From: Octopus vulgaris
Taxonomy: Eukaryota
Assembly (NCBI GenBank): GCA_951406725.2
Contig: OX597815.1
Coordinates: 177,940,001 to 178,004,000, forward strand
DNA length: 64,000 nucleotides
Direction: 5' to 3'
The notes under the pieces were generated by a model. It was given only the letters and a program-made list of their open reading frames with translations. It did not search any database and was not told the DNA's origin. Shown in pieces: positions 2,640-44,505 of this stretch. A program made the translations under genes and the position numbers. The first letter of the stretch is position 1, and every line of letters begins with the position of its first letter.

Positions 2640-3080
2640 AATTATAGGCCATTTCTCGCCGAGTGTTTTCCGTACACCTGGAGCAGAGAAGCTCATTGTA
2701 TGCATTCCCAGATTACACATGCAAATTCACAGATAAAATGTGTATTTTTTAAAATTAATAAATAAATAAATTCATGAATGGATGTTGCTTTCACAGCGAT
2801 AATGCTCTTGTTAGTAAATGAGTCGTTCCATCTTTCACGATTTTCTGCACTTCCTGTAGGGATGGTAAGCCTGGTATCAATTTCAAATAAGTATCAGTAC
2901 CTTTATTTTTATCATTCCTACAGATCCTACAATCACTGATACTGCAGTCGCCTTGAGAATTTTTTGCTGTCCTTCGTTCAATTTTGTTCCCATTTCTTGC
3001 TGAGTGTCTTCCAACACCTAGAGCAAAGAATCTCATTGTATACATTGATACGCCATTGGAATAAACACACCATATTGTTC
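2640..3080 (-). mobile_element. Dong/R4-type LINE 3' end remnant
   Basis: ORF 2791-3045 ends YLKLIPGLPSLQEVQKIVKDGTTHLLTRALSL, the typical RLE-LINE C-terminus (IQK..L.GTAHILR..L); CCAACACCTAG 3'-UTR motif shared with ~6763. Confidence 0.7.
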
Positions 3081-8412: not shown

Positions 8413-9649
8413 CAAACATGCATACTTACACACATATATGCAAAAATCCCATGTTAATGTAGAAATTCCAATGAAGGAATACTGGATTAGAAACTGACAT
8501 ATATACTTACATTTATGCATATAAACACACACAATATTCACGCATAAAACCACAATAGACGCGCAGACAACAGTGTCACACACACACAGTTAATGCTTAA
8601 AAACACACGCACGCATGTGTCCAATGGCATTTTACACACACCTAAAAGCTACAGAAAGTTACACACACACGTTACTCACACACGGTATAGACGCACACAT
8701 TACCTCCTACATATATGCCTTTGAACACACATCAGATAGCTTTACACACTTCCACACATATACATGCGTCCACACACAACACTCACACATAAATATACAC
8801 ACACACACACACACACATCGTTCCATACACGCATGTAAATGTTTACTTACACACATGCACTCACACGTATACATACGGACACACACGCTCATGCAATCTT
8901 CATACCCACACACACACGGTTTCCCACACACACACACACACATACGCTTGCCCACACACACACATGTACACAAACACACATTATTCTCACATGCACACAC
9001 ACATTTTCGCCAAGTAATTGTTGTCTCCCTTGCCAACCTTGTTTCCAGCCACTTCCTTCCTTCCGGTCAATTCAATATGTCCAACTGTTAATTCAGACAT
9101 GTTCCCTTTTTTCTCTTCCCGTTGTTTTCTTTCTCCATTTATCTTCTCTCTTCATTCCTTCCTATACAGTAGATTAGGCTCGAAACGTTAAATACACTTC
9201 CCGTTTTCCTGAGCGTCAAACTATTACAACTTGTTTGCTATTCCCTCACATGTTTCTATCTTTTTTCTGTTTTGTTTCGGTTTTGTACAAACTCGAAGCC
9301 TTGTACATCCAAACATTCCTAATTAATAGATATTGCAGACAAATATTATGACTAACAAATACGTTAAACTGAAGAAAACAAAGAAGCAGCTAAGTCAGTA
9401 GTGCTAAGAAACCAAAGCAGAAAGGCCAGTATCTCAGACAGCAGAACAAATGTAGCTATCCAGAAATATGAGAACAATGTACACATCTATGCTGCAAACC
9501 TTTCGGGGTTGGGGGTTGTAAAATATTTTTCCTTCTCCTACCAGATATTACACGATAGAACTAGATTGAAAATATTGTTCGTCGACGTTCTGCACTGTTC
9601 GATAACGTACTGAAAATGTGCCATTCACCTCTTGTACTCTATGTTTGTA

Positions 9650-28399: not shown

Positions 28400-28444
<45 letters not shown>

Positions 28445-28540
28445 ATAAAACGGTAAGATAACAAAAGAAAGAAAGAGACCTCAATATTATGTAAATAGAG
28501 GAAATTTATCTATACAATATGTTACATTACTCGGTAGTCA

Positions 28541-28603
28541 AGATAAAACTCTGAGTTTCAGATGCCGAAGTGGAAATCCACAACACCATCTCTTCGGTTA
28601 TCT
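28541..28603 (-). ncRNA. Type I hammerhead ribozyme (variant) in PLE 3' UTR
   Basis: Exact reverse complement of 33490-33552. Confidence 0.75.
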
Positions 28604-28797
28604 GGCTATTTGAAAACGTTATGAAAAAATACCGTTAAAAATGAAGGGAAATTACTCTGTTATAACTCTGCTTTGCCTGCGTACTTATACATCGCTCGCA
28701 TTTTTCGTCATAAAAATTATATAAAAATACATAAAAATATATAAAAATATATAAAAATATATAAAATCTTCTTGGGACATAACACAGAAAGCATGTT

Positions 28798-30438
28798 CTA
28801 TCCGTTTTCTTTAGAGGACCAAAAACGTAACAGAAATTTAGTCACATGTGGGCATGATCCGAAAAGTTCTGTCCTTGTATTTAGACATGTGGTAGGGTCT
28901 AAGCTGCTTTTCCAGATAAGCCATCTCTCCATGTCGCATAAACCGCACCTTCCGCTGCCGTTAGTATAGGGCTTACATCTGGCCAAAATCTTCCATTGTA
29001 TGTTATAATCGACACCTTTATCTCTTAAAGACCAAATATGATTGGATAATTGTGTCGCTTTTCTTTTGTTCCAGTGCCTAAAGCTCAAAGTGTGGTTATT
29101 GAACCTGGCCTTGAAATTACCCTCTGTCAGGCCCACGTATTTCTTCGTCAAAACGGTGTCTTTAGTGGTTATAGAGTTTACGGTAGCTTCATATATGATG
29201 GTCTTGGACATGCAAGCTCCATTTAGCGGGCACAATTCTTTATTCCTGCATGAACAGCTGTTTTCTTCTTGTGTTTTTTGTATGTTATGATTGATTATGT
29301 TTTTAAAATTGGTAGTTGAACTAAAACTAATTTTTAAATTGTGTCTATTGAAGAGTTTCCTATAAGCATGGTTAACTGGAAAATGTCTATCTATCAGTGC
29401 TAGGAAATATTTACCTATATTGAAGGCCACCTCGGGTGAGTAAGGGGGCGTAAACCAGATGACCTTCCTATTTCTATTATTCCTTTTCCTTATTGTTGGG
29501 CTGGTGATAGGTGTATATTTTATTTTTTCGCTAAAACCACTATCTTTTAAAGCTTTATTATAAACTGGGGCAACGCTATTGAAGATGTCCTCATTAGATG
29601 AGAGGCTAGAAATCCTCTTACTAATATTTTTAACTAAATTTTTGAATACTATAGGGGGATGGCATGAACCTACATTAATATAACTTAGTCTATCATTGGG
29701 CTTCCTATAAGGCTTATAAATATTATTATTAAGATCTAAGGAAACGTCTAAGAAATTGACAACCGTCAGGTTAGTGTCTATAGTTATACTAAGTCCGAAG
29801 TGTTTCATTAACTGGATAATATCCTTCCTAAAACGATCTTGTGCTGGTCCATTTGTATTAGCTGTTAAGGCGAGGGCATCATCTTTGTAGATGGCGAAAT
29901 GTACGTTAGGGAATGTCTTACTGAAGGTATCTAGGAGAAAGAGTCCAATTAGATCACAGATGCCTGCCCCATCATATGAACCCATGCTCACATCGAAAGC
30001 GCCCTCCGTGTCGGTATTTTTTACCCACTTTGCATTCTCACTGAAAAGTAATGTCTTTCTAGCATGGAAGATTATATCCTTATCATTGGTACTAATTTCT
30101 ATGAAGTCACTAGCGAAGATTAGGGCTTTATCTAGCAGTTCTTTAGAGATAGAGGCATAAAAATCAACAATATCGAATTGTGTAAACCTCGCTTTTTTCT
30201 TATTCTTAATAGCTTTAAACCAGTCTACGACTTCTATACTATTGGACCATTGCACTAGCCTAGTATCGGTCTTAATTTTCGTATTTATTTTATCTAAAAT
30301 TTCTTTGCTAATAATCCCTAGTTCTGACTTGGCTGGGTTGATAAGCCTACATTTAGGATTGGAAAGGAAGTTTTCTTTGTGGTCTTTAATAGTAATAAAG
30401 GCCTCTTTTTGGGGGAGGGTTTCTATTTTTTTATCTAA
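28798..30438 (-). CDS. PLE polyprotein, 5'-truncated: reverse transcriptase + GIY-YIG endonuclease
   Basis: CRLINPAKSELG, FDIVDFYASI, MGSYDGA, IYKDDAL, VNFLDV.LDL; CSCRNKELCPLNGAC linker; IIYEATV...YVGLTEGNFKARFNNH; CGLCDME; LNTRTE. The first ~25 aa of the 571 aa track ORF are antisense pseudo-LTR. Confidence 0.92.
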   Translation of the reverse strand, partial: LDKKIETLPQKEAFITIKDHKENFLSNPKCRLINPAKSELGIISKEILDKINTKIKTDTRLVQWSNSIEVVDWFKAIKNKKKARFTQFDIVDFYASISKELLDKALIFASDFIEISTNDKDIIFHARKTLLFSENAKWVKNTDTEGAFDVSMGSYDGAGICDLIGLFLLDTFSKTFPNVHFAIYKDDALALTANTNGPAQDRFRKDIIQLMKHFGLSITIDTNLTVVNFLDVSLDLNNNIYKPYRKPNDRLSYINVGSCHPPIVFKNLVKNISKRISSLSSNEDIFNSVAPVYNKALKDSGFSEKIKYTPITSPTIRKRNNRNRKVIWFTPPYSPEVAFNIGKYFLALIDRHFPVNHAYRKLFNRHNLKISFSSTTNFKNIINHNIQKTQEENSCSCRNKELCPLNGACMSKTIIYEATVNSITTKDTVLTKKYVGLTEGNFKARFNNHTLSFRHWNKRKATQLSNHIWSLRDKGVDYNIQWKILARCKPYTNGSGRCGLCDMERWLIWKSSLDPTTCLNTRTELFGSCPHVTKFLLRFWSSKENG

Positions 30439-30977
30439 GAGGGTAATTTCAAGGCCAGGTTCAATAACCACACTTTGAGTTTTAGGCACTGGAACAAAAG
30501 AAAAGCGACACAATTATCCAATCATATTTGGTCTTTAAGAGATAAAGGTGTCGATTATAACATACAATGGAAGATTTTGGCCAGATGTAAGCCCTATACT
30601 AACGGCAGCGGAAGGTGCGGTTTATGCGACATGGAGAGATGGCTTATCTGGAAAAGCAGCTTAGACCCTACCACATGTCTAAATACAAGGACAGAACTTT
30701 TCGGATCATGCCCACATGTGACTAAATTTCTGTTACGTTTTTGGTCCCCTAAAGAAAACGGATAGAACATGCTTTCTGTGTTATGTCCCAAGAAGATTTT
30801 ATATATTTTTATATATTTTTATATATTTTTATGTATTTTTATATAATTTTTATGACGAAAAATGCGAGCGATGTATAAGTACGCAGGCAAAGCAGAGTTA
30901 TAACAGAGTAATTTCCCTTCATTTTTAACGGTATTTTTTCATAACGTTTTCAAATAGCCAGAAACCGAAGAGATGGT
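30438..30977 (+). repeat. Inverted pseudo-LTR (3' end copy) of left PLE, truncated inside the hammerhead
   Basis: Matches 32968-33508; ORF 30475-30765 repeats the endonuclease C-terminus; ends at CCGAAGAGATGGT. Confidence 0.9.
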
Positions 30978-31654
30978 AAGATAACAAAAGAAAGAAAGAG
31001 ACCTCAATATTATGTAAATAGAGGAAATTTATCTATACAATATGTTACATTACTCGGTAGTCAAGATAAAATAAATCTCCCGAGTTTCAGATGCCGAAGT
31101 GGAAATCCACGACACCATCTCTTCGGTTATCTGGCTATTTGAAAACGTTATGAAAAAATACCGTTAAAAATGAAGGGAAATTACTCTGTTATAACTCTGC
31201 TTTGCCTGCGTACTTATACATCGCTCGCATTTTTCGTCATAAAAATTATATAAAAATACATAAAAATATATAAAAATATATAAAAATATATAAAATCTTC
31301 TTGGGACATAACACAGAAAGCATGTTCTATCCGTTTTCTTTAGGGGACCAAAAACGTAACAGAAATTTAGTCACATGTGGGCATGATCCGAAAAGTTCTG
31401 TCCTTGTATTTAGACATGTGGTAGGGTCTAAGCTGCTTTTCCAGATAAGCCATCTCTCCATGTCGCATAAACCAAGCACCTTCCGCTGCCGTTAGTATAG
31501 GGCTTACATCTGGCCAAAATCTTCCATTGTATGTTATAATCGACACCTTTATCTCTTAAAGACCAAATATGATTGGATAATTGTGTCGCTTTTCTTTTGT
31601 TCCAGTGCCTAAAGCTCAAAGTGTGGTTATTGAACCTGGCCTTGAAATTACCCT
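30975..31654 (-). repeat. Inverted pseudo-LTR (3' end copy) of right PLE
   Basis: Matches ~28452-29124 with small indels (in hammerhead helix III at ~31071; 2 nt insertion at ~31474). Confidence 0.9.
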
Positions 31655-33295
31655 TTAGATAAAAAAATAGAAACCCTCCCCCAAAAAGAGGCCTTTATTA
31701 CTATTAAAGACCACAAAGAAAACTTCCTTTCCAATCCTAAATGTAGGCTTATCAACCCAGCCAAGTCAGAACTAGGGATTATTAGCAAAGAAATTTTAGA
31801 TAAAATAAATACGAAAATTAAGACCGATACTAGGCTAGTGCAATGGTCCAATAGTATAGAAGTCGTAGACTGGTTTAAAGCTATTAAGAATAAGAAAAAA
31901 GCGAGGTTTACACAATTCGATATTGTTGATTTTTATGCCTCTATCTCTAAAGAACTGCTAGATAAAGCCCTAATCTTCGCTAGTGACTTCATAGAAATTA
32001 GTACCAATGATAAGGATATAATCTTCCATGCTAGAAAGACATTACTTTTCAGTGAGAATGCAAAGTGGGTAAAAAATACCGACACGGAGGGCGCTTTCGA
32101 TGTGAGCATGGGTTCATATGATGGGGCAGGCATCTGTGATCTAATTGGACTCTTTCTCCTAGATACCTTCAGTAAGACATTCCCTAACGTACATTTCGCC
32201 ATCTACAAAGATGATGCCCTCGCCTTAACAGCTAATACAAATGGACCAGCACAAGATCGTTTTAGGAAGGATATTATCCAGTTAATGAAACACTTCGGAC
32301 TTAGTATAACTATAGACACTAACCTGACGGTTGTCAATTTCTTAGACGTTTCCTTAGATCTTAATAATAATATTTATAAGCCTTATAGGAAGCCCAATGA
32401 TAGACTAAGTTATATTAATGTAGGTTCATGCCATCCCCCTATAGTATTCAAAAATTTAGTTAAAAATATTAGTAAGAGGATTTCTAGCCTCTCATCTAAT
32501 GAGGACATCTTCAATAGCGTTGCCCCAGTTTATAATAAAGCTTTAAAAGATAGTGGTTTTAGCGAAAAAATAAAATATACACCTATCACCAGCCCAACAA
32601 TAAGGAAAAGGAATAATAGAAATAGGAAGGTCATCTGGTTTACGCCCCCTTACTCACCCGAGGTGGCCTTCAATATAGGTAAATATTTCCTAGCACTGAT
32701 AGATAGACATTTTCCAGTTAACCATGCTTATAGGAAACTCTTCAATAGACACAATTTAAAAATTAGTTTTAGTTCAACTACCAATTTTAAAAACATAATC
32801 AATCATAACATACAAAAAACACAAGAAGAAAACAGCTGTTCATGCAGGAATAAAGAATTGTGCCCGCTAAATGGAGCTTGCATGTCCAAGACCATCATAT
32901 ATGAAGCTACCGTAAACTCTATAACCACTAAAGACACCGTTTTGACGAAGAAATACGTGGGCCTGACAGAGGGTAATTTCAAGGCCAGGTTCAATAACCA
33001 CACTTTGAGCTTTAGGCACTGGAACAAAAGAAAAGCGACACAATTATCCAATCATATTTGGTCTTTAAGAGATAAAGGTGTCGATTATAACATACAATGG
33101 AAGATTTTGGCCAGATGTAAGCCCTATACTAACGGCAGCGGAAGGTGCGGTTTATGCGACATGGAGAGATGGCTTATCTGGAAAAGCAGCTTAGACCCTA
33201 CCACATGTCTAAATACAAGGACAGAACTTTTCGGATCATGCCCACATGTGACTAAATTTCTGTTACGTTTTTGGTCCCCTAAAGAAAACGGATAG
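31655..33295 (+). CDS. PLE polyprotein, 5'-truncated: reverse transcriptase + GIY-YIG endonuclease
   Basis: Frame open from LDKKIETL at 31655 through the track ORF 31838-33295; translation equals the left copy except FWSP vs FWSS at the C-terminus. Confidence 0.92.
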   Translation, partial: LDKKIETLPQKEAFITIKDHKENFLSNPKCRLINPAKSELGIISKEILDKINTKIKTDTRLVQWSNSIEVVDWFKAIKNKKKARFTQFDIVDFYASISKELLDKALIFASDFIEISTNDKDIIFHARKTLLFSENAKWVKNTDTEGAFDVSMGSYDGAGICDLIGLFLLDTFSKTFPNVHFAIYKDDALALTANTNGPAQDRFRKDIIQLMKHFGLSITIDTNLTVVNFLDVSLDLNNNIYKPYRKPNDRLSYINVGSCHPPIVFKNLVKNISKRISSLSSNEDIFNSVAPVYNKALKDSGFSEKIKYTPITSPTIRKRNNRNRKVIWFTPPYSPEVAFNIGKYFLALIDRHFPVNHAYRKLFNRHNLKISFSSTTNFKNIINHNIQKTQEENSCSCRNKELCPLNGACMSKTIIYEATVNSITTKDTVLTKKYVGLTEGNFKARFNNHTLSFRHWNKRKATQLSNHIWSLRDKGVDYNIQWKILARCKPYTNGSGRCGLCDMERWLIWKSSLDPTTCLNTRTELFGSCPHVTKFLLRFWSPKENG

Positions 33296-33489
33296 AACAT
33301 GCTTTCTGTGTTATGTCCCAAGAAGATTTTATATATTTTTATATATTTTTATATATTTTTATGTATTTTTATATAATTTTTATGACGAAAAATGCGAGCG
33401 ATGTATAAGTACGCAGGCAAAGCAGAGTTATAACAGAGTAATTTCCCTTCATTTTTAACGGTATTTTTTCATAACGTTTTCAAATAGCC

Positions 33490-33552
33490 AGATAACCGAA
33501 GAGATGGTGTTGTGGATTTCCACTTCGGCATCTGAAACTCAGAGTTTTATCT
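33490..33552 (+). ncRNA. Type I hammerhead ribozyme (variant) in PLE 3' UTR
   Basis: Helix I AGATAA/TTATCT; core CCGAAGA; helix II GATG...GTGG-ATTT-CCAC...CATC plus an extra T; GAAA; helix III ACT-CAG-AGT; predicted GUU cleavage after 33546. Confidence 0.75.
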
Positions 33553-33581
33553 TGACTACCGAGTAATGTAACATATTGTAT

Positions 33582-33623
<42 letters not shown>

Positions 33624-43592: not shown

Positions 43593-43896
43593 GCTCCTGT
43601 ACCTAAACCTCAGCACCATCATGGCATCTCATCTGACATTTTAAAACGGACAATTGTCCGAAAAGACATCCACATGGATTGCACATCCGATTTGGACCAC
43701 CAAATGCTGCAGATAAGTTCTGATCTTTGCGGATCTTAAAATGTCTTTTGCGGCCTCGTAAGATTTGCAAACCTACTGGCATACACTATATATATAAAGT
43801 TAATCCAAACAAGAAAACACAAAAAAACACAACAACGCGAGGATGTGGAACAAATATAGTATTATTGGACGCTCAGGAAAGAAGGGAAGAAGGAGG

Positions 43897-43931
43897 GTTT
43901 AACGTTTCGAGCGGAGCTCTTCGTCGGAAAC
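43897..43931 (-). ncRNA. Minimal hammerhead ribozyme motif (PLE type)
   Basis: GTTT CCGACGA A GAGC-TCC-GCTC GAAA CGT T AAAC: helix I GTTT/AAAC, palindromic ACGT helix III. Confidence 0.65.
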
Positions 43932-43977
43932 ATAGGAAAAGGAAAGATCCCGAAAAGGGAAGACAGAGGGAAAAAAA

Positions 43978-44505
43978 TACGACGGGCTTTTTTCAGTTTC
44001 CGTCTCCAAAATCCACTTACAAGGTTTTGGTTGGTCCAACGCTATAGTAAAAAACGCAGTAGGACGGAACCCATAACCATGTGGTTGGGAAGATAGGGTC
44101 CAACCACAAACCCACACCTGCCTCTATACACATCTTTTTCCTCTATCACTAGACTACGGCCAAACTGGAGCACTACATTGAAGGGCTCACTCGAACGATT
44201 GGTCCACAGTAAGTAAAGAAAAGTCTGGTTCTTATATTATCTGTCTTCTGCCGAAACGCTATGTTACGGGGAGGCAAACAAACAGGCGGCGGTGAGGTCA
44301 AACACAGATACGAAGACATACACAAAAAGATATATACATACATATACATATATAAGACGGTCTTCTTTAAGTTTCCGTCTACCAAATTTACTCACAAGTA
44401 GATTTGGGCGTCCCGATGCTATACCAGAAGAAACTTGCTCGAGGTGCCGCACGGTGGGACTGAACCTAATGTGGTTGGGATGCAAACTACTTACTATGCC
44501 TACCC
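43978..44505 (-). mobile_element. Two SINE family B copies
   Basis: ACGACGGGCTTTTTCAGTTTCCGTCT...ATCCAC at ~43979 and AGTTTCCGTCTACCAAAT...GGTGGGACTGAACC at ~44370-44466. Confidence 0.75.

Follow-up and report, generated by a model that had tools for sequence, protein, structure and literature searches.

Penelope-like elements (PLEs) of the Hydra clade are defined by a CxCX5C linker, CxxC and CxH motifs, the lack of a CCHH motif, and a (TA)n target (Craig et al. 2021, PMC8557442). The same study describes inverted 5'-truncated copies and 3' tails as common among PLEs. File S2 of that study lists the hammerhead motifs of 25 Hydra families in 26 rows, and the counts given here were taken from those rows by eye. 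Helix III is palindromic in these motifs, mostly with a one-base centre. A GUU site (U17) is present in 10 of the 25 families, and a U precedes GAA in 14 of them, where it faces an extra unpaired U after A9. U4 is found in all 25 listed families, and a lone unpaired 3' base before GAAA in none. The Naiads are reported there to thrive without a hammerhead (PMC8557442). The Hydra-clade PLE hammerhead is already known, octopus included, and the U4C change is already known from viroids.

Published PLE hammerheads cleave weakly and as dimers only (PMC4209133, PMC6765202), and the single PLE motifs tested in the first of these reports did not cleave (PMC4209133). The PAc ribozyme, from a Poseidon element of Anolis, is assisted by protein, and insertion in vitro proceeds without it (Frangieh et al. 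2024, PMC11167929). No RNA ends were detected at its hammerhead cut site in that work. PLE hammerheads may serve in processing or circularisation, or may be passengers. The U4C change "considerably decreases activity in vitro", but the viroid carrying it stayed infectious (PMC3088659), and U4C is elsewhere reported not to abolish hammerhead cleavage (PMC9608096). The form CYGANGA is in use as a hammerhead search descriptor (PMC13481778). Apart from the C3/G8 swap, altered CUGA sequences had low activity in a mutational scan (PMC9901934), and U17 has been described as disfavoured (PMC1636495).

The locus described here is contained in 64,000 nucleotides of Octopus vulgaris DNA (contig OX597815.1), referred to below as the window. 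Its features are given in Table 1.

Table 1. Coordinates of the hammerhead motif, its host element, and a second hammerhead in the window.
Feature	Position	Strand	Basis or remark
Type I hammerhead motif, copy D	33490..33552	+	Sequence, descriptor scan, folding
Helix I, copy D	AGAUAA 33490-33495 with UUAUCU 33547-33552	+	Sequence
Core CCGAAGA (C3-A9), copy D	33496-33502	+	C at position 4 is 33497
Helix II, copy D	33503-33532	+	30 nt, two internal loops
Unpaired U33533, then GAAA, copy D	33533; 33534-33537	+
Palindromic helix III ACUC-A-GAGU, copy D	33537-33545	+
GUU site, copy D	33544-33546	+	Predicted cut 33546/33547
Probable outer extension of helix I	33485..33558 (33485-33489 with 33554-33558)	+	Past bulged U33553; variants, energies
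5'-truncated Hydra-clade PLE ORF, copy D	31652..33295	+	RT, CxCX5C linker, C-terminal GIY-YIG; 547 aa open
3' UTR / pLTR region, copy D	33296..33588	+	Ends in (TA)n 42 nt past predicted cut
Copy A, inverted duplicate of D	28442..30438	-	Ends in (TA)n; identical motif 28603-28541
Copy B, 3' fragment	30438..30977	+	Ends inside helix II of motif
Copy C, inverted 5'-truncated 3' fragment	30975..31654	-	With tail
Second minimal hammerhead, different PLE family	43897-43931	-	C at position 4; descriptor scan

The 5.1-kb unit has the order A(-) B(+) C(-) D(+), with (TA)n runs at both ends. The A/B and C/D junctions are reverse complements of each other, and the whole insertion (28442-33588) has the form of an inverted duplication of one inverted-truncated unit. 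Copies A and D differ by 2 substitutions in their common part. Copy A has an additional optional 3' tail (28442-28503, minus strand) of about 62 nucleotides, which is above the 30-40 bp quoted for PLEs. Many contigs of the family terminate where copy A terminates, in (TA)n, and one subfamily differs in the linker between motif and tail (28504-28526).

The motif of copy D sits 200 nucleotides past the stop codon of the PLE ORF. The mirror copy named in the earlier note is present, letter for letter, on the minus strand and belongs to a 1,935-nucleotide inverted repeat. This mirror is the product of one inverted duplication and lies on the other strand, so it provides neither independent support nor a cis partner. 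The motif of copy B (plus strand) is broken off within helix II at 30977, and that of copy C (about 31132-31064, minus strand) is disrupted by 6 additional letters across helix III and its cut site. Therefore no strand carries two intact motifs, and the window locus lacks a same-strand tandem of two. The small indels of the inner copies B and C reflect either repair or assembly error in a long palindrome.

The ORF has the domain order of the Hydra clade, RT followed by a C-terminal GIY-YIG, with no CCHH, although the Pfam match to GIY-YIG is weak (E 0.016). The CxCX5C linker reads CSCRNKELC. CGLC (CxxC) and CPH (CxH) lie around the conserved E and N of the endonuclease. A (TA)n target is seen at both ends of the unit and also at the loose ends of family contigs. 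The open part of the ORF has 547 codons, against about 700-730 amino acids in full-length relatives; N-terminal RWK and DKT motifs are both present in the top protein matches (P0001 and P0002), and the window copies are 5'-truncated. Judged by these motifs and by comparison of alignments by eye, the host is a Hydra-clade PLE. The RT catalytic motif at 32203-32214 (plus strand) is YKDD, and is YRDD in Hydra relatives. A Naiad/SECIS reading was dropped, as the endonuclease is C-terminal and there is no in-frame UGA.

The strict hammerhead core is C3 U4 G5 A6 N7 G8 A9. The motif of copy D has C at position 4 (33497) and agrees with the relaxed form CYGANGA; it is therefore classed as a variant hammerhead homologue. 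Three helices surround the core and the open ends are in helix I, as in the type I architecture. The A15.1-U16.1 pair is present, as is a base other than G at position 17. Helix I, the core, helix II, the extra U, GAAA, and GUU are each where the earlier note had placed them. Its palindromic helix III is also present, but not to the extent it gave (AAACUC/GAGUUU), since the active fold uses the shorter pairing in Table 1. The longer pairing is a misfold that competes with the active one and takes up A13, A14, U17, and U1.1. At 10.1-11.1 there are two alternatives. Either a G-C pair forms and one extra base remains before G12, or the G pairs with 33533 (U or C) and C33532 is bulged. The first is 3.4-5.9 kcal/mol lower by two-dimensional energy. 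The bulged U in the extended helix I may reflect a tertiary contact of helix I with loop 2, although it is suggestive only.

Several deviations from consensus had been attributed to this motif. Of these features, C4 and the single unpaired 3' base alone are unusual; the palindromic helix III, GUU, and U before GAAA are common in the clade.

Chance resemblance in AT-rich UTR DNA was considered using shuffled sequence and model searches. In the window, a relaxed type I descriptor, composed with the motif already known, matched the two copies and one further site. In 200 dinucleotide-shuffled windows it gave 0 matches at both stringencies, while shuffles of the 3' UTR gave 1 in 20,000 at the loose setting and 0 in 20,000 at the strict setting. 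The Rfam hammerhead models gave no match for the motif, either at the gathering threshold or at E<=10. A covariance model built from eight relatives ranks the motif first in the window, with E=0.25 and helix II unmatched, and the folding z of the monomer is -1.7. Because these model scores are weak, the case for homology is one of anatomy and position. The missing Rfam match, the E value, and the weak z are what a chance resemblance would produce, but the strict UTR shuffles argue against it, and so does the occurrence of this motif at the corresponding position in relatives and in the nearest published family (PMC8557442). Positional homology, as judged from sequence comparison, already largely refutes this explanation, and we consider it very improbable.

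Ten related loci were fetched. Hammerheads are present in six of them, with 15 sites in total, and in five the hammerhead lies 90-460 nucleotides past the matched ORF. The four loci that lack one comprise three short contigs and one contig ending inside the motif. All 15 sites have U4, as found by a scan tolerant of C. The covariation alignment used eight of the 15 sites, leaving out six near-duplicates and one minimal motif of another type. Of 13 pairs, 9 have changes on both sides. The covariation score was reached by 0 of 500 shuffles, although sequences that are related can outperform shuffles of this kind and the structure was derived from the same sequences. With a conserved fold in the relatives and U4 throughout, the fold is a conserved feature of the clade and C4 is a real deviation from it. 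That the motif is a type I hammerhead homologue in a PLE 3' UTR/pLTR, as first proposed, is borne out by its anatomy, the motifs of relatives, their covariation, and folding.

Same-strand pairs of intact hammerheads, absent from the window, are present in relatives L001 and L007. In L001 the two (257-313 and 3016-3072) are canonical hammerheads of the same helix III design, located in both pLTRs of a full-length Hydra-clade element. Loci L005-L010 are hammerhead-bearing Hydra-clade PLEs on contigs filed in bacterial MAGs, and are most likely contamination by animal DNA. L006 and L010 have several hammerheads each, in both orientations. No related locus was found in viral contigs, and none was found in genome contigs by a single-protein search. 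Exact 20-nucleotide patterns of the window's two motifs gave 0 matches in three scans. One 20-nucleotide pattern match in a bacterial gene was judged to be chance.

The stretch is present in 20 of the 24 sequencing runs listed. Contigs from four runs (X1, X11, X12, and X15) were aligned to copy A at 80% likeness; X1 and X15 have the same species label but come from different studies. Variants were counted at at least 5% of contig depth, and the shares below are summed contig depth, not allele frequency. The base at position 4 corresponds to 28596 on copy A. No G>A change is present there at 5% or above in X1 or X15, and therefore C4 is the norm of the family among the aligning contigs. One contig of X12 carries C4, and one low-depth, divergent contig of X11 could have U4.

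Within the 63 nucleotides of the motif, X1 has variants at three sites, which are the terminal pair of helix I (6%), an internal-loop U (19%), and 33533. The last changes from U to C at 34% in X1 and 35% in X15. The core, helix III, and the paired parts of helix II have no X1 variants at 5% or above, although selection cannot be proved from three variable sites. Outside the motif, A33555G (26%) completes a five-pair outer extension of helix I past the bulged U, and A33486G (14%) preserves this extension by wobble. Some divergent contigs of the family align over the motif and tail and diverge upstream. The summed depth over the motif and tail is greater than that over the ORF, most of all in X15, but this measure cannot rank the parts.

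Of 15 variants in the ORF, 10 are synonymous (p about 0.01 relative to a transition background, with sites that are not independent), a rough indication that the protein of the family is under selection. The description of the element as apparently active is overstated for this locus, which is 5'-truncated and has no intact same-strand pair; it is the family alone that looks young and selected. Runs under nine organism codes contain 83-98% of the words of 32700-33585, and contigs of X11 and X12 span the 3' end of the element with 2 differences. These matches across organisms may reflect closely related species, DNA of the host in other samples, or horizontal transfer.

In predicted folding of the monomer, the active fold is 3.3 kcal/mol above the minimum, or 1.2 kcal/mol with C at 33533. 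These values, together with the probable extension of helix I past the bulged U, can be read in favour of cleavage by a single motif. Helix III would then be three pairs round a three-base loop, and the outer bulge of helix I would dock on helix II. Helix III pairs in the monomer with a predicted probability of only 0.31, however, and it is a perfect palindrome both here and in relatives, including those listed in PMC8557442. The single PLE motifs tested did not cut (PMC4209133), and cleavage as a monomer appears improbable.

The earlier note had held that a palindromic helix III suits cleavage as a dimer, and folding agrees. Helix III is self-complementary, with a predicted duplex of -7.4 kcal/mol, and the dimer is predicted to lie about 11 kcal/mol below two monomers. 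C3-G8 is freed in the dimer, but A9 is not. A9 is predicted to pair with U33533 at a probability of about 0.9 in both monomer (0.92) and dimer, unlike in eight relatives. The natural C variant at 33533 is predicted to remove this pair.

What is observed is the motif's anatomy, its host element, counterparts in the corresponding position in relatives, and a family-wide C4. We lean towards reading this 3'-repeat hammerhead as a candidate slow ribozyme that depends on dimers and is possibly helped by protein. Two motifs, on the tandem units of a full-length element or on two RNAs, would pair via their self-complementary helix III. Each core would cut after U33546 and leave a 2',3'-cyclic phosphate and a 5'-OH. 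U4C, U17, and the competing A9-U33533 pair would keep cleavage slow, perhaps up to the point at which the protein of the element binds, as with the anole PAc. In a tandem, cleavage in the upstream repeat would define the 5' terminus of the downstream unit's RNA. The role as a processing signal that the earlier note put forward is putative, and genomic copies retain sequence past the cut site, 42 nucleotides in D and about 107 in A, so the template RNA copied into these insertions was uncut there. Points against a slow ribozyme include the lack of an Rfam match, the non-significant custom covariance score, the missing same-strand pair at this locus, and the fact that a young family would be uniform whether or not its motif works. 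The U4 of all published and fetched relatives, the low activity reported for CUGA changes and U4C, the disfavoured U17, the A9-U33533 pair, the insertion of PAc without its ribozyme, and the success of Naiads that have none also count against it.

The main rival to a slow, dimer-dependent ribozyme is a motif that no longer cuts. The founder would have lost catalysis through U4C and the A9 mispair and amplified anyway, with cleavage dispensable, and the fold would persist through the youth of the family or as a protein-binding or RT-start structure. This would fit the invariance of U4 in the clade (25 of 25 families in the published rows of PMC8557442 and 15 of 15 fetched sites), the mostly weak core mutants of the mutational scan (PMC9901934), and the insertion of PAc without ribozyme cleavage as reported (PMC11167929). 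Every genomic copy retains an uncut site. In addition, a second, decayed PLE remnant in the window likewise has C4, so copies with no sign of being selected can acquire the change. Against a loss of catalysis, the sole core change is one described as retaining activity (PMC3088659, PMC9608096). G5, G8, A9, G12, A13, A14, the C3-G8 pair, and the palindrome are intact, also in divergent contigs where they are visible, and variants in the family repair the helices and do not erode them. We regard a motif without catalysis as possible, though on the unlikely side.

The second hammerhead has a 4-bp helix I and an ACGU helix III. It is in a short 3' remnant (about 43790-44000) that ends in (TA)n. 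A related remnant at 9178-9227 (plus strand) has no core. Since a second PLE remnant of the window has C4, the U4C change may recur in this host.

It is also conceivable, but quite doubtful, that U4C is a tuned family-wide setting, kept for slow cutting and for removal of a misfold, in what would be the first animal retrotransposon family with CCGA as its normal core. Slow cutting would leave enough uncut RNA for insertion, and CCGA would avoid a misfold of the CUGA core with UCAG of the motif's own helix III. In predicted folding the active fold lies 7.1 kcal/mol above the minimum with U4, versus 3.3 kcal/mol with C4. The published family Penelope-3_HM combines CUGA with the same helix III (PMC8557442), which argues against the misfold as the decisive factor. 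The literature searched contained no description of a PLE family in which C4 is the norm, and the PLE variant set of Lunse et al. 2017 may cover such a family. PMC3376415, PMC6466107, and bioRxiv 10.64898/2026.07.22.740005 contributed nothing on this point.

A recently amplified family without U4 is a natural test of the role of PLE hammerheads. If the window motif cuts, CCGA cores work in animal retrotransposons and scans based on CUGANGA undercount. If it does not cut, a Hydra-clade family has spread without cleavage, backing a dispensable ribozyme. The natural U/C at 33533 and A/G at 33555 provide ready-made comparisons.

Like the window motif, the Hydra-clade hammerheads described by Craig et al. 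are type I, lie in the 3' region, and have a palindromic helix III (PMC8557442). Penelope-3_HM is identical to it in helix III and GUU, and differs in having a CUGA core. The window's helix II (30 nucleotides) is longer than that of every Hydra-family row listed there.

The closest published protein by eye is that of Hydra-1_Obim, from Octopus bimaculoides, which has idiosyncratic stretches of the RT and C-terminal regions in common with the window ORF. Its hammerhead resembles that of the window by eye in having GAUG after the core, a one-base-centred palindrome, GUU, and a bulged U in helix I. It differs in having U4, other helix II and III sequences, and one additional base in the 5' strand of helix II. 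The many amino-acid differences, compared by eye, make the window family a sister family, distinct from Hydra-1_Obim.

PAc is similar to the window element in that it is a PLE hammerhead in a pLTR and its copies have an optional 3' tail. It belongs to another clade, however, and is a minimal motif overlapping the start codon. The CCGA variants described for peach latent mosaic viroid and a citrus viroid-like RNA have the same core change as the window motif. In the viroids CCGA is a minority variant of a replicating RNA with a stable helix III, whereas in the window C4 is the norm of a family of genomic retrotransposons. Unlike the viroid variants, the window motif also combines this core with a dimer-type helix III and U17.
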